The position numbers and the translations under genes are program-made. From a virus (taxonomy: Duplodnaviria; Caudoviricetes), in IMG/VR virus record IMGVR_UViG_3300021431_000087, positions 60,195 through 124,194 of that record: a stretch of DNA of 64,000 nucleotides; one strand, written 5' to 3'. Below, piece after piece: positions 1 through 47,716 of the stretch (its first letter is position 1; each line of letters begins with the position of its first letter). Under the pieces are notes generated by a model, which saw nothing but the letters and a program-made list of their open reading frames with translations, searched no databases and was not told the DNA's origin.

Positions 1-247
1 TTGGCTTTCCACCTACAAGGATAATGTCGCCAACCTCAACCTTATTTGTTGGAATAACAAAAAACATCTCATCACCTACGTTGAAGCAGAAATTAGTAAC
101 ATTGGTTAAAGTCCCTTTCTTTATATTATAGGACTTGTAGCCGTTAGAGCACTTGACAGCGATGCTGCCATTCATAGTAAGACGGCACATGCCTGATGCT
201 ATCTTACCAAACATACCATTAAAGGAGTTCTGAATGTTTTCAAACAT
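1..247 (-). CDS. Phage hypothetical protein, N-terminal part (runs off window)
   Basis: Hand translation from ATG at 247: MFENIQNSFNGMFGKIASGMCRLTMNGSIAVKCSNGYKSY..., open to the window edge. Confidence 0.7.
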   Translation of the reverse strand, partial: MFENIQNSFNGMFGKIASGMCRLTMNGSIAVKCSNGYKSYNIKKGTLTNVTNFCFNVGDEMFFVIPTNKVEVGDIILVGGKP

Positions 248-282
248 AATTATTTATTTTTTTTGTTTATATTATGCAGGAC

Positions 283-717
283 TCAAACCTGCGTTAGTTT
301 TTCTTTCCATAGTTTTGTCCCGTCGAGCGTTGTGCGTCTGCCCAATACCTCTACGAGGTATTTCTTTCCTTTCTCCGCGCCCCATTCCTCACGACCCTCG
401 CGGTACTCGATGGCTTTCAACTCGAAGGTCATGCGGCGCGATTCATCATCCTTCTTCGGATAACCCAACGAGAACTGGACGTGGGTGTAATCGGTGGGTA
501 CGCCTTTCTTCGTACAGTGGCTTACGGCACAGTAACCTCCCCAGTCACAATCGCCCTTCGAGCGGCAAAGCCGCTTCACCCAATAGAAGACATCCCGATA
601 TTCCTCCGTCTTCTCGCCAGACTCTATCATTCTGTAGTACTTAGCCTTCAGTGGCTGATACAGGATTTTAATTCTTTGCTGTTCCATAGTTATTCCTCCG
701 CTCTTGATTTTACACAT
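283..717 (-). CDS. ASCH/PUA-like domain protein
   Basis: YYRMIESGEKTEEYR motif (GxKxxExR); real start possibly the second Met. Confidence 0.75.
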   Translation of the reverse strand: MCKIKSGGITMEQQRIKILYQPLKAKYYRMIESGEKTEEYRDVFYWVKRLCRSKGDCDWGGYCAVSHCTKKGVPTDYTHVQFSLGYPKKDDESRRMTFELKAIEYREGREEWGAEKGKKYLVEVLGRRTTLDGTKLWKEKLTQV

Positions 718-25787: not shown

Positions 25788-26013
25788 GAAATCTCCATCC
25801 ACGGGAGGTTTCGGCTGCCCAACCTGCTCTGGGTAGCCATTTTTTGCTAACTTATGATAACTGGTTGCCCATTTGTGATAAGGTATGCTAAACTCTTGCT
25901 AAATGAAGCTAAATTGCTCGCCTAAACGATTGTTTTTCAACCGTTTGCAATTACCTTTGCATCGAACCCTTAGAGGCCAAGAGCGCAAGGCCATAACACG
26001 GCGCAGCAAGAGT

Positions 26014-26922
26014 ATGAATACTACAAAGAAGTCATTAAGCGAGCAGGTAAACGAAGTGTTGAAAAGCAGGATGAGCCGCCCCAAGAAGCAGGAGGCCATC
26101 GTAAAGCTCGGCGTTACTCCTTTTGAGGCAATGTGCCTTGTGAGGAGTTACATGCCTGCCCCACGCCCACTACCATTCTCCTACACCTTCGGGGTAGAAA
26201 TTGAATGCGTAGGATGCCGATACACCGAGTTCTTCGCAGCAGCACGCCGCAACGGACTCGAGGTGATGGATCAGGTATACTACAACCACAGGGACATCCC
26301 CCAATTCAAGCTGACCACCGACTCGAGTATCAGCGGGCACAATCCCGCCGAGTGCGTCACCCCTGCCTTGAACGGCAACGACCAAGGTTTCGAGAGCCTC
26401 AAGGCTTGCTGCAAGAGCCTTCGGGAGATTGGCGCTACGACCAACTCCTCCTGCGGACTCCACGTACACATCGGGGCTGCAAGCCTTACCGACCTTGAGT
26501 ACTGCAACGTCTTCGTCAACTACATGAGGATGGAGACCGCCATCGAGAGCTTTCTTGCCCCGAGCCGCCGGGGTAGCTACGCAAGATGGTGCAACAGCCT
26601 CCGCAACCACGAATACGGTGTTCTTCACGCCACCACGAAAGAGCAGATGCGCTACGCCTTGAACAGCGACCGCTACCACAGGGTAAACCCCTGCGCCTAC
26701 GCCGCCCACAAGACCATCGAGTTCAGGCAGCACCAAGGCACTGCGAACTACACCAAGATAAGCCACTGGGTTAAGTTCTTGGGCAAGCTCGTAGAGTTCA
26801 GCAAGACTACCCGCCTTAACGCCGACATCAACCGCATCGAGGACATCCCTTTCTTGAGCGAGAACGATAAAGCCTACTTCTGCAGCCGCAGAGCCGAATT
26901 CGAGGCTCGTGCCGCTCGGTAA
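26014..26922 (+). CDS. Amidoligase (COOH-NH2 ligase type 2) family protein
   Basis: TFGVEIE, DSSI, ECVTP, SCGLHVH, RYHRVN, TIEFRQH; start set by the conserved leader. Confidence 0.9.
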   Translation: MNTTKKSLSEQVNEVLKSRMSRPKKQEAIVKLGVTPFEAMCLVRSYMPAPRPLPFSYTFGVEIECVGCRYTEFFAAARRNGLEVMDQVYYNHRDIPQFKLTTDSSISGHNPAECVTPALNGNDQGFESLKACCKSLREIGATTNSSCGLHVHIGAASLTDLEYCNVFVNYMRMETAIESFLAPSRRGSYARWCNSLRNHEYGVLHATTKEQMRYALNSDRYHRVNPCAYAAHKTIEFRQHQGTANYTKISHWVKFLGKLVEFSKTTRLNADINRIEDIPFLSENDKAYFCSRRAEFEARAAR

Positions 26923-27025: not shown

Positions 27026-27541
27026 ATGATAAAAGAAGAATGGAGACCGATAAAGGATTACGAAGGACTTTATGAGGTTAGCGACTTAGGCCGGGTTCGC
27101 TCTTTAAGAAACAAAAATCGCATCCTTAAACCTTCAAATAATCAAAACGGCTATCTGCAAGTGACCCTAAGCAAAGACAATAATATACAGGCGCTTCTTA
27201 TCCACCGTCTTGTAGCAAATGCTTTTCTTGACAATAAACAGAATCTGCCACAAGTAAATCATATAGATGAAATTAGAACAAACAATTTTGTTACCAACCT
27301 CGAATGGGTTACAGCGAAACAGAACTTGAAGCATAGCAACGTCTGTAAAGTTATGAAAGCCGCTGCCGTAAAAGCTTTGGAGAAACCCGTTAATATGTAT
27401 AACATGTATGGTGAGTTTGTGAAAAGATTTGAAAGTGCAACGAAAGCTGCGGACTTTATTGGTGGGTATCAACAGAATGTTAGTGCTTGCTGTTACGGCA
27501 AAATTAAATCCTACAAAGGATATGTATTTAGATTTGTTTAA
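27026..27541 (+). CDS. NUMOD4-HNH-NUMOD1 homing endonuclease
   Basis: EEWRPIKDYEGLYEVSDLGRVRS; HRLVA..F; VNHIDE..NN..NLEW. Confidence 0.9.
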   Translation: MIKEEWRPIKDYEGLYEVSDLGRVRSLRNKNRILKPSNNQNGYLQVTLSKDNNIQALLIHRLVANAFLDNKQNLPQVNHIDEIRTNNFVTNLEWVTAKQNLKHSNVCKVMKAAAVKALEKPVNMYNMYGEFVKRFESATKAADFIGGYQQNVSACCYGKIKSYKGYVFRFV

Positions 27542-27577: not shown

Positions 27578-28129
27578 ATGTGTGTAATAATAATTTCCCC
27601 AGCGGGTCATGCCCTCCCCACCAAGAAAGAGCTGAGGGCAGCGTTTAAGCGTAACCACGACGGATGCGGATTCGTCAGCGAGAGTGACCACTACAAGAGC
27701 CTCGATTTTGAGGATTTCTACGCAAGGCTAAAGAAAGTCCCGAAGAACGAGAACTGCATCATCCATTTCCGGTGGGCTACCCACGGCAAGGTGTCCCTTG
27801 CCAATTGCCACCCGTTCTATGACGAGAAATCAAATACGTGGTTCATGCACAACGGCATCCTCGCCATCACACCCTACAAGGGCAAGACGGACAGCGAGAC
27901 GGCTTTCAAGAAATACCTCGTCCCTGCTATCCGCACGTACGGTCTCTACTCGAAAGAGCTGCAGACCATCGCTCATAACATCATAGACTCGTCCAAGTTC
28001 GCATTCATGCAGAACGGGCAGATTAAGACCTTCGGACGGTTCATTGAATACAATGGCTGTTACTACAGCAACCTATACCACCTGCCATACACCGCCTTCA
28101 TCCAGAATAGGTGGACGTACGCAGGTTGA
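27578..28129 (+). CDS. Class II (Ntn) glutamine amidotransferase
   Basis: N-terminal MC, NHDGCG, HFRWATHG, NCHPF, HNG, TDSE. Confidence 0.9.
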   Translation: MCVIIISPAGHALPTKKELRAAFKRNHDGCGFVSESDHYKSLDFEDFYARLKKVPKNENCIIHFRWATHGKVSLANCHPFYDEKSNTWFMHNGILAITPYKGKTDSETAFKKYLVPAIRTYGLYSKELQTIAHNIIDSSKFAFMQNGQIKTFGRFIEYNGCYYSNLYHLPYTAFIQNRWTYAG

Positions 28130-29623: not shown

Positions 29624-30139
29624 TTAATCCCACCATTCCCACATCTTGTATTCGCGGATAAGGTTATACAGGTGCATGGCTTTGCGTGTACGAAGATTGA
29701 CGGAATAGGTTATCGCAGCTCCCCATCTTCCGTTTCTCCGAGCGTTTTTAATCGGCTCATCACGAAAGAACCTCCGCTCGTTACGTTCGTTTATATGGCA
29801 TGGAAATGGTACTGAATCGTCAATGCCTGCGTCAATCAACTCAAATAAGCCATCATCACGCTCTTTCCATTTAACGTCACCCACGCTTCGTTTCTCCATC
29901 CACGTTCTATATGCAGCGTCATCTTCCAAAATGATGTCAATTAACTTTATGCAGACGCTCATGTCGCGGACGTTCTGTTCCCATCCCACGTGCCTTTGTG
30001 CTTCCCCTATGTAGTCACGCATCCGCTGGAGTTTCTTCTTCTCCAGAGCAAGCAGAAAGCACCAGTCCCAATCGTGGTCGTTAGCGAGCAGCCGCTTGTA
30101 GGCGTGTATTGGGTTTCTCCTATGCAACTTCCTTTTCAT
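29624..30139 (-). CDS. Hypothetical phage protein
   Basis: DHDWD...terminal WWD. Confidence 0.7.
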   Translation of the reverse strand: MKRKLHRRNPIHAYKRLLANDHDWDWCFLLALEKKKLQRMRDYIGEAQRHVGWEQNVRDMSVCIKLIDIILEDDAAYRTWMEKRSVGDVKWKERDDGLFELIDAGIDDSVPFPCHINERNERRFFRDEPIKNARRNGRWGAAITYSVNLRTRKAMHLYNLIREYKMWEWWD

Positions 30140-30885
30140 ATCTCAAAACATTTATCTAATCTGAATCCGTTCATCTGTCCTTTGTGTTCCACGTAGCCGA
30201 GCTGATTGCATATCACCTCCGTGTTGAACACCTTGCAGTTGATGTTCGTATGCGAGTGTCCGTAGACCCAATAGTCAATCCTTCCGTCCTCCATCAGATA
30301 GTGAAGGTCGGTGGCAAAGGCAGACCGCAGCGGGCTTGTGAGGTGTTCCGTGGCTATCGTCAGCAGAGACGGTGAGTGGTGGGTGACAACAACGATATGC
30401 TTGGCGGTAGATGCCTCGACCATTTCCTTTATCATTCTAACGCAGAACTCATGCTCGTGCCTATACACATGCGGAGTCAGTCTATAATCTCCAAACTCTA
30501 TCATTCGGAAATCATTCAAGCCACATTTTACAGAAAGTTCATGTTCTGGTGCAATGTCAGACCATAGCGTGGAGAATATGAAATCCGTATCTTCTATCCG
30601 AGCAACTTTATTCTGATAGTATGCAACGTTAGAGTATATTGGCTTAACGAAACTTTCAGCATAGTCTGCAAGGTTACTACCATAGAACTCATGGTTTCCT
30701 GGCACGGCAAGCACATGTTTGTAATTCTTTCCTGCCCATTCCCAGAACCAAGCACAATCCTCTATGTACATAACATCTCCAGCAAGCAGAAGTATGTCTC
30801 CTGCCACTTCCAACGGATTCTCACACAGCCACTCTCGGTTGGCTCGGAACTCCAAATGTAGGTCTGATGCGTATTGAATCTTCAT
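30136..30885 (-). CDS. Calcineurin-like metallophosphoesterase
   Basis: SDLH, AGD, GNHE, THH, GHSH motifs. Confidence 0.9.
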   Translation of the reverse strand: MKIQYASDLHLEFRANREWLCENPLEVAGDILLLAGDVMYIEDCAWFWEWAGKNYKHVLAVPGNHEFYGSNLADYAESFVKPIYSNVAYYQNKVARIEDTDFIFSTLWSDIAPEHELSVKCGLNDFRMIEFGDYRLTPHVYRHEHEFCVRMIKEMVEASTAKHIVVVTHHSPSLLTIATEHLTSPLRSAFATDLHYLMEDGRIDYWVYGHSHTNINCKVFNTEVICNQLGYVEHKGQMNGFRLDKCFEI

Positions 30886-30896
30886 TGCCTTTTATT

Positions 30897-31391
30897 TTAA
30901 GCATCTGCAAACACCTTCCCGTCATCAAGTGTTACTTGCAATTTCGTGTACTCACAATGGAATCTTTCTTTTAGTTTCCAAAAATAACGCCTACACGCCA
31001 ACTTGCAGGCTTGCAGGTCATGAAGAAGATAGTTGCCACATGTCTCTGGTGTTGTGGCGGGCACTTCCTCTTGCTCGCTTATCCACCGTAGACACTCCAT
31101 CGTCAGATAGCGCATTTTCTCTACATCATATCCTTTGCGCATGATAACGTACATTCCCGTCAAGCACCCCATCGGGCCTACATAAACCACGTCATCCTTT
31201 ACCACGCTATTCCTGAACCACGTAGCCATCAAGTGCTCGATGCTGTGCATGGCCGCAGGAGCGATGGCAGGCTCCTTGTTCGGCTCCGTGAAACGAAGGT
31301 CAAAGGTCGTAAAATCCTTATCCTCACGGGAAACATATATCCCCGGCTTCAACTTTGTGTGGTCAATCGTAAAACTTGCTATCGCTTCCAT
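30897..31391 (-). CDS. luxS: S-ribosylhomocysteine lyase (AI-2 synthase)
   Basis: SFTIDH, HSIEH metal motif, GPMGCLTG catalytic Cys, CGNY. Confidence 0.92.
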   Translation of the reverse strand: MEAIASFTIDHTKLKPGIYVSREDKDFTTFDLRFTEPNKEPAIAPAAMHSIEHLMATWFRNSVVKDDVVYVGPMGCLTGMYVIMRKGYDVEKMRYLTMECLRWISEQEEVPATTPETCGNYLLHDLQACKLACRRYFWKLKERFHCEYTKLQVTLDDGKVFADA

Positions 31392-32080: not shown

Positions 32081-32650
32081 ATGAAAACGTTAAAATTCCA
32101 AATTACGGGTACACGGCCTTTGATGCTGAATAACCCGCGAACTGTCAACCCATTTGACAAGTATTCAAAACTATTGAAGCCGCTGACGAGCAAGCGCACC
32201 AAGACCGAGGACGACCTCATGGAGATTTCCCGCCTCAAGTTCCTTGCCAGTTTGTACGTTGACGAAAAAGGTTATTTCCTCCCTCAGGAGTGCATCGAGC
32301 GTAGTATTATCGAAGCCGCCAAGGAGCGCAAACTCGGCAAGAAGTTTGAGCGCAGTTTCAACGTTATCGACCGTGCACCGCTTGACTTCAAGGACAACAA
32401 AAAGAAGCCTGAGCAACTTTTCGATATGGGTAATATGTACGTCGATGTCCGAGCCGTAGGCATCAAGAACGCTCGTATCACCACCACACGCGCCATCATT
32501 CCGAACTGGAGTGCCACCTTTGAGTGCTGGTTTGACGAAACCCAACTTGACGAGAAGGAGGTGCTTGACGTGTTGGAGATTGCTGGTCTTCGCTATGGTG
32601 TCGGCACGTACCGCCGCCTCTACGGACGATTCTCTGTGAAGAAGATTTAA
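32081..32650 (+). CDS. Cas7/RAMP-like RNA-binding protein (standalone phage RAMP)
   Basis: N-terminal beta strand + PLML, LP..CI..SI helix, thumb-like VGIKNARITTTR, C-terminal Gly-rich loop AGLRYGVGTYRRLYGRF; fold inferred by eye. Confidence 0.7.
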   Translation: MKTLKFQITGTRPLMLNNPRTVNPFDKYSKLLKPLTSKRTKTEDDLMEISRLKFLASLYVDEKGYFLPQECIERSIIEAAKERKLGKKFERSFNVIDRAPLDFKDNKKKPEQLFDMGNMYVDVRAVGIKNARITTTRAIIPNWSATFECWFDETQLDEKEVLDVLEIAGLRYGVGTYRRLYGRFSVKKI

Positions 32651-32664
32651 CGCTTCATATTTGC

Positions 32665-33248
32665 AGAGTAGTATAGCAATGCGTAGAAGAACTCCCGTGA
32701 CGGATTCCTTGCCGTGGTTCGACCCCACGGGCGGGAGCTATTCTCAGCTAAGTTTAGTAGAGCCTTGTGTAGACGAGACGAGTTTTGTTTAGCAAAGTTA
32801 TGCGCAGTTTAGTTAAGACGAACTCCCACAATGGTTGTATGTAAGGTTCGATTCCTTCAGTGGGAGCATTTAGTCCAGATTCGTAAAGCACAGTGGAGTG
32901 TAGTACAGTATGGCTCAGTTGAGAGAAGTTTAGTTCAGACCTGTACAGCAAAGACGAACTCCTATCATGGTGCAAGCATCGGTTCGATTCCGATGGTAGG
33001 AGCAAAAAGTTAAGTTCGGATTAGCAGAGTCCAGCGAAATATAGTTTAGCAGAGTAAAGAAGAACCCTCACTATGGTACAAGCCGTGGCTCGATTCCACG
33101 GGTGAGGGCAAAAAGTCCAGCAAAGACCAGTATAGCGAAGTGGTGTCTTGTATGGCTATGCAAAGCCATCCAAAGTTTAGCAAAGAACGGTTAAGTAAAG
33201 ACGAAGGCAGTAACGGTTCACGTTGGGGTTCGATTCCCCGAACTGCCC
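32665..33248 (+). ncRNA. Array of five 5-nt-periodic (WGH-NN) tracts, each followed by a tRNA-like element; putative guide-RNA array
   Basis: Tracts 32665-32689, 32746-32820, 32872-32956, 33008-33062, 33114-33203; tRNA-like elements 32692-32737, 32823-32866, 32959-33002, 33065-33108, 33206-33247. Confidence 0.85.
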
Positions 33249-33279
33249 AAAATGTTTAACATTTAAAACATAAGCGAAT

Positions 33280-33753
33280 ATGGAGAATAAAAAAGAATTG
33301 ACGGCAGAGGTGCTTAATCCTCTGATGGCTGAAATAGCCGAAAAGTTTGGTGACGGTGCGCTCATTCCTCACGAATGGCTGCGCAAGAAGTTCGACATCA
33401 AAGATCCTTCAATGGCTGACTGCGAAAGCGAAGAGGACTTTATCGCCAGACTGCGTGAGCAGCAGTTCCTCTATATGGGGTGCATCGACCAACTGCGATG
33501 GGCAATGCTTCAGAAAGAGCAAATGTACCTAAAGAACGAGTGGGGTGACGGATATTCCATCCTACTGCCAACAGAGCAGGTTTCTTTCGGCTACAACGAG
33601 TTTGTGAAGACCATCAAGAAAGCCACTAAAGAAGCGGATGCCATCATCAATAATGTGCGCCCCGTTCCCGACATCAACGCTGCGAAAGACAATGACATTC
33701 GTGCAAGGTTCGGGATGATGCGTGATATGCTGGCAAGCATAAAGAAAAGATAG
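33280..33753 (+). CDS. Accessory protein of the RAMP cassette, winged-helix-like
   Basis: YLKNEWGDGYSIL resembles a wHTH wing; helical C-terminus; same transcription unit as the array. Confidence 0.6.
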   Translation: MENKKELTAEVLNPLMAEIAEKFGDGALIPHEWLRKKFDIKDPSMADCESEEDFIARLREQQFLYMGCIDQLRWAMLQKEQMYLKNEWGDGYSILLPTEQVSFGYNEFVKTIKKATKEADAIINNVRPVPDINAAKDNDIRARFGMMRDMLASIKKR

Positions 33754-33786
33754 AATAGTTAATGTTAATTTGTACATATTTTGGCA

Positions 33787-33818
33787 AGCCTGTCCGTGAT
33801 GGATAGGCTCTGCTTTTT
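33787..33818 (+). terminator. Intrinsic terminator closing the RAMP cassette
   Basis: AGCCTGTCC-GTGAT-GGATAGGCT hairpin, then CTGCTTTTT; convergent with terL. Confidence 0.65.
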
Positions 33819-35238
33819 ATAGAAAATCTGACAATATTTGATCGTCAGACGCACCGCCTACAACCCCTCCTCTTTCAATAATCATCGTAAGGACATCTTC
33901 TGCGTCATCATGTGCATTTCTTCCTTCCTTTCGGTAACTTTTCACGGATGAAGCGAACTCTGGCCATCGACGTTCCCAATCCACAGGAAATACAATCATA
34001 TTGTTTACTTCACAAGCCCTTGTGAAGATTCTGACATTTTTGTTGTGGTGCTGCGTGAAAGTAATAAAAGTCGTTTTGTGGTTTTCGTACTCACGACTTA
34101 TACGTTCCACGTTTCTGGCAAAAGCCCTGCCTCCATTATTTGATTCAATGACACAATACCTTATCTCATATTTCGCTAAATCCTGCGCCAACATTTGTTC
34201 CGTTGCCTCTTGGCTTTTCTTTGTGTATATAACACTCGTCACGTAGTATCCATCTTTCATTGAAAGGTAGGTTATGCTACACAAATAATCCTCGCCAACA
34301 TCTGCGGTGTCGCAACAACAGCACATTGTCCCCAGCTTGACGGGAGGTAAAACTTCATAAGTACGAAATGCGTGCTCATAAAGCAAGCCTTCTAAAGGCA
34401 TAGGATTTTGTTGGTATTGTGTTTGAAAAACATACGAATTGGCAGCATTTATCTTATCAAGTTCCTCAAGTGTATGCTTGTATGGCCACAGTGCTTCACG
34501 CTCTCCGTTCTCGTTTATCTGTATAACTGGCAGTGATATCACCCGCCACTCGTCTGGTTCTATTTCCTGCAAATAGCCGCAGAGGTCATGCTCATGCAAA
34601 CGCTGCATGATAATGATAATGGGTGTGTTACGGGAATTGACGCGGTTTCTGATTGTTGTTTCAAAACGTCGGTTCACACGCTCACGGACAACATCGGAAA
34701 GGGCATCCTCCGGCTTGATAGGGTCATCGATAATGATCGCGCCACCAAAACGATACGGTTCACATTCCCTTTCGACAAGACCAGCACCGAAACCCGTAAT
34801 CTGACCGAGCGTAGATGTGGCGTACAAGCCACCTCCTTGGTCGGTTTCCCACTGAGATTTCATATTCTTTCCGTAGGTGATACGGGTAGGATAGAGCCGT
34901 TGATATTCTTCGTTTTGAACTATATTTTTTACGGCAATAGAGTTGTCTTGTGCAAGGTTGGCAGAATAAGAGAGGTGGATGAATTTGGCAGAAGGATTGA
35001 CGGCTAACCCCATAGCAATGAAGTTCTTTACTGCAAGTTCCGTTTTTCCATACCTCGGCGACAAATTAATAATAAGTTTATTACATTTTCCGTTAAGGAC
35101 ATCATCAAGGGCATCACAGATAAGCTTGTGGTGCCTGCCTATGATGAACTTCATGTCGTTGTTCTGCTTGAAGAAGTACCTTGTGAAGTTAAGGGAACTC
35201 TTCAGCGTCCAAGCCCTCAAAATGTCCGTGTCTGTCAT
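33817..35238 (-). CDS. terL: Terminase large subunit
   Basis: LIINLSPRYGKT Walker A, IIIDDP Walker B, IMQRLHEHDL, QYQQNP, IESNNGG, HDDAED. Confidence 0.93.
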   Translation of the reverse strand: MTDTDILRAWTLKSSLNFTRYFFKQNNDMKFIIGRHHKLICDALDDVLNGKCNKLIINLSPRYGKTELAVKNFIAMGLAVNPSAKFIHLSYSANLAQDNSIAVKNIVQNEEYQRLYPTRITYGKNMKSQWETDQGGGLYATSTLGQITGFGAGLVERECEPYRFGGAIIIDDPIKPEDALSDVVRERVNRRFETTIRNRVNSRNTPIIIIMQRLHEHDLCGYLQEIEPDEWRVISLPVIQINENGEREALWPYKHTLEELDKINAANSYVFQTQYQQNPMPLEGLLYEHAFRTYEVLPPVKLGTMCCCCDTADVGEDYLCSITYLSMKDGYYVTSVIYTKKSQEATEQMLAQDLAKYEIRYCVIESNNGGRAFARNVERISREYENHKTTFITFTQHHNKNVRIFTRACEVNNMIVFPVDWERRWPEFASSVKSYRKEGRNAHDDAEDVLTMIIERGGVVGGASDDQILSDFL

Positions 35239-45008: not shown

Positions 45009-45725
45009 CTAATCGGATTCATTCTTCTCCGATTCTTCCTTTTTCTTTTTCTCTTTGTAGTCGTACTCAAACAAAAGACGCTCACAATCAGGGTACTCAT
45101 CATAGAGCTTGTGCAAGTCCTGCGGGAATTTCTCACGGATATAGAGCAGATAGTCGAGATCGGTGATATTCTGACCACTCGACTGTCCCTTTCCGTAGCA
45201 CTCTGGACGAATCAGCCCCATACGGTCGATATACTCCAGAATATCCTTGTTCTTATAGTGTGAGAGAGGATAGGCTTTCTTCGATTTCTCGCAGATAGCC
45301 TCCATTTCATACGTGCGAAGCATACAGCGACGGTTGAGGGAATCGCTCTGCTTGAATCCGTAGAGCGCCCACTGTATGCCCATCTTCTTGCGAACCATGT
45401 CCGTAAGTGTCGCCATTGTCTGCAACTTCGTCTTCGGGTCTTTCCAATGCCCCATGTAGCCGTACTTGATGTACGAGAACACGGCGAAGTGCGGAATCTG
45501 CACGAACTCACAGTTGGGGTACTTCTTACGGGCGTAGTTAATGTAACGGTTGATGTGCTCCATGTTCTTTACCACGTACATAAACACGCACACCACACGC
45601 TTGAACCTCGGTGCGCAGATGTCAAGTAAGGCAATGCTGTCTTTGCCCGATGCAGAGTGGAACAGTATCACCTCGTCCGTACGCTTCGCTATCTCATCCG
45701 TTATCGCTATAGCCTTTCCTAACAT
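45009..45725 (-). CDS. PAPS-reductase / PP-loop family protein
   Basis: SASGKDS PP-loop, GFKQSDSLNRR, YPL. Confidence 0.85.
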   Translation of the reverse strand: MLGKAIAITDEIAKRTDEVILFHSASGKDSIALLDICAPRFKRVVCVFMYVVKNMEHINRYINYARKKYPNCEFVQIPHFAVFSYIKYGYMGHWKDPKTKLQTMATLTDMVRKKMGIQWALYGFKQSDSLNRRCMLRTYEMEAICEKSKKAYPLSHYKNKDILEYIDRMGLIRPECYGKGQSSGQNITDLDYLLYIREKFPQDLHKLYDEYPDCERLLFEYDYKEKKKKEESEKNESD

Positions 45726-47342: not shown

Positions 47343-47386
47343 AATCGTAACAGATTAACATTCAAAACTCATATATTAAATTTCTG

Positions 47387-47460
47387 CGGATGTGGCTGGA
47401 TTCAAACCAGCGGCCTATTGGTTAACAGCCAATTGCTCTGACCTTCTGAGCTACACAACC
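47387..47460 (-). tRNA. tRNA-Asn(GTT)
   Basis: GGTTGTG acceptor, ATTGG-CTGTTAA-CCAAT anticodon arm; T-loop TTTGAAT variant, one acceptor mismatch. Confidence 0.85.
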
Positions 47461-47467
47461 ATTTTCG

Positions 47468-47539
47468 TTGCGGAAGATGGGTTCGCACCATCGACCTCCT
47501 GGTTATGAGCCAGGCGAGCTACTACTGCTCCATTCCGCG
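47468..47539 (-). tRNA. tRNA-Met(CAT), initiator-like
   Basis: CGCGGAA/TTCCGCA with C1xA72 mismatch; CCTGG-CTCATAA-CCAGG. Confidence 0.88.
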
Positions 47540-47631
47540 ATATGAAAGGCATCCTCCGCTATCCCATGTGCCGCTGCCCTGTGTGCGAAGTACGGCGGAT
47601 CAATCCGTGCGGCTTCCTTTATGCCTTTTTG

Positions 47632-47716
47632 CGGAGAGTGAAGGATTCGAACCTCCGAGCCATTTCTGACTGACACGTTAGCAACATGTTGCTTTCGACC
47701 TCTCAGCCAACTCTCC
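47632..47716 (-). tRNA. tRNA-Ser(GCT)
   Basis: GGAGAGT/ACTCTCC, ACATG-TTGCTAA-CGTGT, long variable arm, GGTTCGAATCC. Confidence 0.9.

Follow-up and report, generated by a model that had tools for sequence, protein, structure and literature searches.

The segment at 32081-33809 of the window (the whole 64,000-nt stretch of viral DNA analysed here) is very probably a VIPR locus made up of vipr, a vrRNA array with five units, vap and a terminator, in which the tract 5 guide is directed against the large terminase gene (terL) of rival phages. Preprints from 2026 describe VIPR (Viral Interference Programmable Repeat) as a phage-borne RAMP system (bioRxiv 10.64898/2026.04.26.720920, 10.64898/2026.04.26.720927). 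Its vrRNAs carry 9-16 pentamers, each with a conserved GGY and a hypervariable NN, and a structured 3' tail (bioRxiv 10.64898/2026.04.26.720920), and they have been shown experimentally to bind dsDNA on either strand while skipping 1 nt, the wobble base (bioRxiv 10.64898/2026.04.26.720920, 10.64898/2026.04.26.720927). The VIPR RNP, known for the SUSP1 and P. fulva systems, forms a helical filament on dsDNA and represses transcription; type II VIPRs are reported to repress and not to cut. Natural VIPR targets are competing phages and satellites, with no self match of at least 80% NN, and disrupted NN pairing abolishes silencing in the VIPR paper. The locus described here has every sequence-level feature of a VIPR. 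The mechanism is already known from preprints of April-October 2026; the tail and array layout is apparently undescribed and the natural targets are newly identified. The original prediction had reached the central VIPR rule, a noncontiguous guide with a 1-nt wobble skip, from raw sequence alone, and, judged by sequence matches, the rule appears to hold in a natural locus remote from the E. coli and Pseudomonas models.

Layout and components of the locus

The array occupies a 629-bp intergenic stretch (32651-33279) between ORFs of 189 and 157 aa, and the latter (vap, plus strand) converges on terL on the minus strand (Table 1). Each of the five units is a pentamer tract followed by a minihelix of 43-47 nt. 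Pentamers of tracts 2-5 have G at position 2 in 97% of cases and A or T at position 1 in 92%, with G absent at position 3 and near-uniform use of bases at positions 4-5. This vrRNA-type repeat has the consensus WGH, which is related to GGY but is not GGY. A run-finder built on the pentamer pattern returns only these arrays across six phage genomes. Direct repeats of CRISPR type are absent from the window by TRF and from the array on reading, seven neighbouring ORFs scanned against Pfam and PHROGs reveal no Cas families, and blastn of the locus against GenBank phages gives no match. Logan contigs from RNA libraries span vipr and the array start (unit 1), although such contigs cannot prove transcription, RNA ends or processing.

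Table 1. Coordinates of the locus and of its sub-threshold cognates in the same genome (window numbering)
Feature	Position	Strand	Description
vipr	32081-32650	+	189-aa RAMP (Cas7/Csm3-like) filament protein; phrog_4652
Tract 1	32665-32689	+	5 pentamers, short run; same in all close relatives
tRNA-like minihelix 1	32692-32738	+	7-bp acceptor-like stem, GG-bearing linker, 6-bp T-arm, T-loop TTCGACC
Tract 2	32746-32820	+	vrRNA variable region, 15 pentamers
tRNA-like minihelix 2	32823-32867	+	Covariation
Tract 3	32872-32956	+	17 pentamers; NN complementary to coding strand of Amidoligase_2 motif ECVTPAL
tRNA-like minihelix 3	32959-33003	+	Covariation
Tract 4	33008-33062	+	11 pentamers
tRNA-like minihelix 4	33065-33109	+	Covariation
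Tract 5	33114-33203	+	18 pentamers WGH/NN; NN string resembles positions 1-2 of terL codons 279-295
tRNA-like minihelix 5	33206-33248	+	Best Rfam look-alike mascRNA, E 0.24, sub-threshold
vap	33280-33753	+	157-aa accessory protein; SUSP2 gp039 homologue; phrog_5926
Terminator-like hairpin	33787-33809	+	Closes the vipr-array-vap unit
terL, own allele of large terminase	33817-35238	-	phrog_38 E 5e-95; Pfam Terminase RNaseH-like
Own terL codons 268-295	34354-34437	-	Sub-threshold cognate of tract 5 and its variants
Own Amidoligase_2 motif ISGHNPAECVTPALN (ORF 25903-26922)	26328-26375	+	Tract 3 cognate, 22/32, sub-threshold; skipped base is the wobble base
Own GATase_4 motif IIHFRWATHGK (ORF 27578-28129)	27757-27792	+	Cognate of L030/L033 tract-2 variant, 18/24, sub-threshold

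Vipr proteins are small (~20 kDa) single-RRM RAMPs with a G-rich loop and a thumb, and the 189-aa protein conforms to this type. Its AF2 model has a pLDDT of 94.9, and its top Foldseek matches in the PDB are all Csm3, Cmr4 or type VII Cas7 (E 4e-6, prob 1.00, TM up to 0.60). It is 37% identical to SUSP2 gp040 over the full length (E 3e-37), and full-length homologues are found by tblastn in 130 GenBank phage records, mostly FelixO1-like coliphages, including Felixounavirus/Suspvirus and SUSP2. The C-terminal motif GxGxYRxxxGRF is nearly invariant. The RAMP fold and the Vipr-clade homology of this neighbouring protein support the predicted guide. The adjacent Vap is homologous to SUSP2 gp039 (BLASTP E 4e-9 over 138 aa); its AF2 model has a pLDDT of 78.7, and its fold matches are weak and winged-helix-like, with none at E <= 0.001. 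The vipr and vap pair is kept in all relatives. In SUSP2, gp040 is followed by the vap homologue gp039, and GGYNN tracts flank these genes. A TRAP-like RNA-binding ring was considered as a reader of NAG repeats and rejected: TrpBP (PF02081) is absent from the genome, and the RAMP fold was then found.

Residues that contact the guide provide a link between the protein and its repeat. In the SUSP1 structure, which shares its numbering with SUSP2, R138 and W178 hold G2 and H17 and D177 read G1 (bioRxiv 10.64898/2026.04.26.720927). Pairwise alignment with SUSP2 places the G2-holding residues at an invariant R137 and a near-invariant Y177 in the present protein, and R39, K82, G87 and K88, the clamps on the non-target strand, are retained as R39, K81, G86 and K87. 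The G1-reading H17 and D177 are replaced by N17 and T176, which would fit a shift from GGY to WGH with G2 kept and G1 now A/U. A GGY>AGY change abolished SUSP1 silencing (VIPR paper, fig. S12 legend), so the WGH unit would have to rely on an altered G1 pocket. The altered fixed trinucleotide and the matching G1-residue changes suggest a route to re-engineer repeat specificity.

The minihelix has a 7-bp acceptor-like stem, a short linker with GG and a T-arm with a TTCGATT-type loop. In the minihelix alignment, 96.9% of cells are paired and 12 of 13 pairs have compensatory changes; covariation is 0.897 compared to 0.22 in shuffled and 0.14-0.25 in slid alignments. The array has the conserved structured 3' tail of a VIPR, with a structure unlike the SUSP1 pseudoknot. 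The minihelices have no D or anticodon arm and are not tRNA genes. Neither ARAGORN nor Rfam at the gathering threshold (RF00005) calls a tRNA in the array; their only calls are three genuine tRNA genes (Asn-GTT, Met-CAT, Ser-GCT) clustered at 47386-47716 on the minus strand. Covarying minihelices and Vipr homology point to an RNA and away from a pac site or other DNA-level repeat. The term tRNA is absent from three VIPR preprints, and ‘tRNA-like’ from a fourth.

Comparison with known systems places the locus near type II VIPRs of the SUSP1/SUSP2 clade, with which it shares a small RAMP, a homologous accessory gene, pentamer guides, a structured tail, a 1-nt wobble skip, targets in competing phages on either strand and the lack of a self match of at least 80%. 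It differs from SUSP VIPR in its repeat unit ([A/T]G[T/C/A]NN instead of GGYNN, with the G1-contact changes H17N and D177T), in an array that lies between vipr and vap instead of flanking the genes, in acceptor/T-arm minihelices instead of a pseudoknot tail, and in its setting in a gut Bacteroidota phage instead of an Escherichia phage. The natural targets found for it are conserved enzyme motifs (terL, GATase_4, Amidoligase_2), whereas those of SUSP VIPR are a satellite recombinase and lysogeny regulators. Published VIPR tails and arrays comprise pseudoknot tails, staggered arrays and hammerhead-interspersed arrays, and YNNNG and other consensus units have been reported. WGT/NN, TGH/NN and other non-canonical arrays have come from a genomic language model (bioRxiv 10.64898/2026.10.21.760802) and, like the present one, set a degenerate trinucleotide beside a Vipr-like fold; its passages on VIPR give motif, repeat number and fold and no targets. 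Class 1 CRISPR Cas7 filaments (Csm3, Cmr4, type VII Cas7) share the protein fold and the principle of one protomer per fixed guide segment with periodic pairing gaps; their period is 6 with 5 paired bases, whereas here it would be 5 with 2 paired bases. In contrast to CRISPR-Cas, the repeats themselves hold the guide information, and the flanking ORFs scanned contain neither Cas5/Cas6/Cas10/Cas11 nor adaptation genes. As in mascRNA/MALAT1 and hammerhead-interspersed VIPR arrays, a structured element after each RNA could set its ends. Unlike mascRNA-type punctuation, the minihelix has no D or anticodon arm, and an RNase P cut would part tract from tail.

Tract 5 and the large terminase gene

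Tract 5 consists of the pentamers AGTCC AGCAA AGACC AGTAT AGCGA AGTGG TGTCT TGTAT GGCTA TGCAA AGCCA TCCAA AGTTT AGCAA AGAAC GGTTA AGTAA AGACG. The minus strand at 34404-34354, within terL, reads PMPLEGLLYEHAFRTYE, and the tract 5 NN string agrees with it in frame at 9/17 dinucleotides and 24/34 bases (70.6%); the string, the terL segment and both counts given in the original prediction are exact on recount. Neither the window nor the rest of the 124-kb genome holds a better period-3 gapped match of the NN string than this site. In a shuffled-NN null, 24 matches are reached in 4/300 and 3/200 shuffles of dinucleotide order, i.e., about 1%, and periods 2, 4 and 5 give no significant match (p >= 0.97). 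Taken alone and with five tracts allowed for, the match is marginal and no more than suggestive. The guide NN equals the terL coding strand, again as predicted, so the RNA would pair with the template strand. The middle of the tract (33148-33171, TGTCT TGTAT GGCTA TGCAA AGCCA TCCAA) breaks the WG rule and could fold into a 6-bp hairpin, AUGGCU/AGCCAU. Despite their degeneracy, these units have NN that agree with the target. Two other ways to read the tract were rejected. Translation with the base after NN as third codon base yields stops (TAG, TAA) and a third-base agreement of 7/21, and pentamer position 3 as carrier of the skipped target base agrees at just 3/16.

Close relatives, here the contigs with a 189-aa protein from the same 90% cluster, replicate the match and remove doubt over it. 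They keep the five minihelices while tracts 2-4 are replaced wholesale, as is tract 5 in one of them; guides are swapped wholesale between near-identical phages and tails are kept. Tract 5 of L030, L031 and L033 differs from that of the window at two NN pairs, both of which raise the own-terL match, to 26/34 at the same site, a value reached in 0/1500 shuffles. In L032, tract 5 is unrelated-looking and has 21 pentamers, and its best genome match is again the own terL in the same frame (30/42), beginning 11 codons upstream of the window tract 5 site. The non-overlapping 5' part (pentamers 1-11) agrees with terL codons 268-278 at 15/22, at a position fixed beforehand. Pentamers 1-10 of the window tract and 12-21 of L032 differ at 3/20 NN bases and at 7/10 third positions; NN is kept while position 3 varies, which points to selection on NN. 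Mismatches between tract 5 and own terL are often synonymous or conservative (AG vs TCG, Ser; CT vs TTG, Leu), which suggests that the true cognate is a diverged terL.

The original prediction held that the guide is aimed at terL of a related competing phage. Database searches return near-perfect gapped matches in related-phage terL: 32/34 for the L030-type tract 5 in L051/L052 and 39/42 for the L032 tract 5 in L053. For the tract 5 of the window, the best target found is terL of L051 at 29/34 (85%), compared to 24/34 for its own allele, and terL of a related 120-kb virus record (G006) scores 28-33 with the tract-5 variants. The foreign terL match includes Ser AGC where the own allele has TCG. 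Third codon bases vary freely across the matched targets, in keeping with the proposal that an NN-x-NN-x guide defeats synonymous escape, and the own allele, at 70.6%, lies under the 80% NN cut-off of the VIPR paper, as expected if mismatches spare it. Among 120 TerL homologues, related-phage TerL at 80-88% identity fit the guide-implied peptides at up to 16/17 and 19/21 (P0135 and P0145 at 16/17 by protein alignment), compared to 11/17 and 13/21 for the own TerL. A nine-dinucleotide seed occurs at 50 loci in IMG/VR; terL accounts for 50/50, all sharing one codon frame across the motif ..QYMQNPKP[IM]EGLMY.

The loci of L051-L053 yielded neither vipr nor vap within 6 kb of their matched terL, and the G006 record, about 75% complete, has no vipr match. 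Across a handful of distinct alleles, terL beside the module or a vap remnant has a 68-76% NN match, and terL with no module found nearby has 85-94%. Alleles near the module fall just below the published threshold and the others above it, which makes them a natural experiment on mismatch tolerance. When all tracts are compared with 79 terL loci and G006, only tract 5 variants match. L032 tract 3 also reaches 22/28 in L075/L078, outside coding sequence, and this match is taken as chance. The tract 5 copy of the window is a poorer guide than the copies of its relatives. A metagenome scan with the 3' half peculiar to it (AA at codons 288 and 290) gave 13 matches, 0 of them in terL, so this copy may be partly degenerate or aimed at an unsampled allele.

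The own TerL differs at eight amino-acid positions in the target segment, which lowers the match to its sub-threshold value. Selected non-synonymous escape is not statistically supported as an explanation of these mismatches: non-consensus residues make up 8/28 of the target segment and 96/445 elsewhere (p 0.26). Q276 and L286 are two of only 13 departures of the own TerL from the consensus of at least 80%. A deviant terL (SYVFLTQYQQDPRPAEGLLYEHPFRTYE) also occurs on L136 (3516-5680) and matches the tract-5 variants at 68-76%. This 5.7-kb contig keeps a vap convergent on terL, has other genes in the place of vipr and the array, carries no vipr and is possibly a decayed or replaced module. Many close TerL homologues (P0132, P0133, P0141, P0150-P0158) are 600-820 aa long and have inteins (Hint_2, Intein_splicing, LAGLIDADG_3), which sit at residues 65/66 or 446/447 of the window TerL; the own terL has none. 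Intein homing was rejected as an explanation of the match, with insertion sites that lie away from the target site.

Other guides, proposed mechanism and alternatives

Guides in this lineage also match two other enzyme genes. In the IMG/VR phages L205/L206, a class-II glutamine amidotransferase gene (GATase_4) carries the motif LIHFRFATHGSI, to which the L030/L033 variant of tract 2 corresponds at 23/24; the match lies on the other strand and skips the wobble base. The same variant also matches the GATase_4 gene of the window (27578-28129) in frame. Tract 3 of the window has its top own-genome match in Amidoligase_2, at the ECVTPAL motif; the codon frame is kept and the skipped base is again the wobble base. 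Searches gave tract 3 no foreign allele above 80%, and in IMG/VR seed scans its 3' half gives matches that fail to extend and its 5' half gives 0 matches. No target was identified for tracts 2 and 4 of the window in its own genome, the 79 terL loci or G006, and the tracts of another lineage (G001-G005) have no significant target in their own genomes. Only period 3 is significant, with terL and GATase_4 matched in frame and the skip at codon position 3, and the best own-genome match is 70.6% (24/34), below the 80% self-match limit. These are natural guide-target pairs (terL, class-II amidotransferase, amidoligase) in an abundant gut phage group.

It can be proposed from these relations that the array is transcribed on the plus strand into units of 5-18 pentamers, [A/U]G[U/C/A]NN, each with a minihelix as 3' tail. 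Filament assembly, DNA binding and repression are carried over from the published system. By SUSP1/SUSP2 homology, one Vipr protomer would cover each pentamer, bury the fixed trinucleotide and present NN, and the filament would read dsDNA as NN-x-NN-x with the codon wobble base skipped. Tract 5 would aim at the most conserved large-terminase motif (..VFETQYMQNPKPMEGLMYEHPFKTY..), in the form present in related phages for which searches gave no such locus. On binding, terL of a rival, whether co-infecting or resident, would be silenced and packaging of the rival's DNA blocked. Host tRNA enzymes might process the array at the minihelices, and the tRNA-like tail may tie guide maturation to these enzymes. 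We lean narrowly towards the view that the locus represents an undescribed VIPR architecture in which the minihelix is both filament-nucleating tail and cut signal for host tRNA enzymes, WGH/NN is read by a remodelled G1 pocket (H17N, D177T), and several guides act against invariant catalytic motifs of rivals' terL, GATase_4 and Amidoligase_2.

The notion that the gapped match is a coincidence, with the tract an unrelated repeat RNA or DNA element, draws on the window tract alone, for which p is about 0.013 before correction for tracts and registers. It carries a vanishingly small probability and is refuted by replication in relatives (including the 15/22 extension of L032 at its prefixed place), by foreign terL matches of 39/42 and 32/34, and by the seed scan, in which all 50 matches fall in terL in frame; the protein is, moreover, homologous to an experimentally characterised system. 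It is very improbable that tract 5 is chiefly a regulator of its own terL (70-76% NN match), one that sets timing or dosage in late packaging, and not a weapon. The array lies about 600 bp from the own terL, three guides of the lineage have their best own-genome matches in own genes, in frame, and VIPR may tolerate mismatches, but foreign alleles match far better (85-94%) than the own one. The VIPR paper, without self matches of at least 80% and with silencing lost on NN disruption, also argues against self-regulation, as do other lineages in which the module lies in a recombination gene cluster far from terL. Some action of tract 5 on the own terL may nevertheless occur.

A reading in which the module is a mobile element comparable to a free-standing homing endonuclease, with a guide that marks the sensitive terL by the insertion point and repair that copies the resistant allele together with the module, is very improbable. 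It would account for the position of the module next to the resistant terL allele, with none found beside the matched alleles (L051-L053, G006), for L136, where vap and a resistant allele occur without vipr, and for the attraction of inteins and an HNH endonuclease gene to the same genes. Against this stand a locus without a nuclease, a Vap with weak, winged-helix-like fold matches, type II VIPRs that are reported to repress and not to cut, and other guides that target genes 5-8 kb off. Repression of rival genes by a VIPR thus remains the preferred reading.

Array variety and neighbouring genes

Arrays of other relatives vary in number and arrangement of units. The G001-G005 relatives have plainly WGT/NN repeats. 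G001 (IMGVR_UViG_3300045988_083298) has a third tract of 22 pentamers at 45199-45308, downstream of vap and apart from its two-unit vipr-vap array. L025 (4574-5394) has five minihelices, with units 2-3 recurring as units 4-5 through a segmental duplication, and its last tract lacks a minihelix; another arrangement among relatives is a single minihelix flanked by tracts. L026 (4574-4695; vipr about 51% identical) has a lone tract of about 20 nGTNN pentamers that runs to the vap start codon without a minihelix, so the tRNA-like tail is not universal even in VIPRs of Bacteroidota phages. In the high-GC phages L003 (3001-4062) and L004 (3001-4120), whose vipr is 31-38% identical, vipr abuts the next gene and there is no intergenic array; any guide RNAs must therefore lie elsewhere.

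Several neighbouring genes deserve mention. In L033, an RNA 2'-phosphotransferase (PTS_2-RNA/Tpt1), a tRNA-splicing-type enzyme, is encoded upstream of vipr (101-622, minus strand), beside the tRNA-like-punctuated array. A free-standing HNH homing endonuclease gene (NUMOD4, HNH_3, I-HmuI NUMOD-like) lies at 27026-27541 (plus strand) of the window, between the Amidoligase_2 and GATase_4 genes, which are the same two genes matched by VIPR guides of the lineage. Just upstream of the VIPR locus, a phage-encoded LuxS gene (30897-31391, minus strand; Pfam E 4e-45) stands beside a metallophosphoesterase gene (30136-30885, minus strand).
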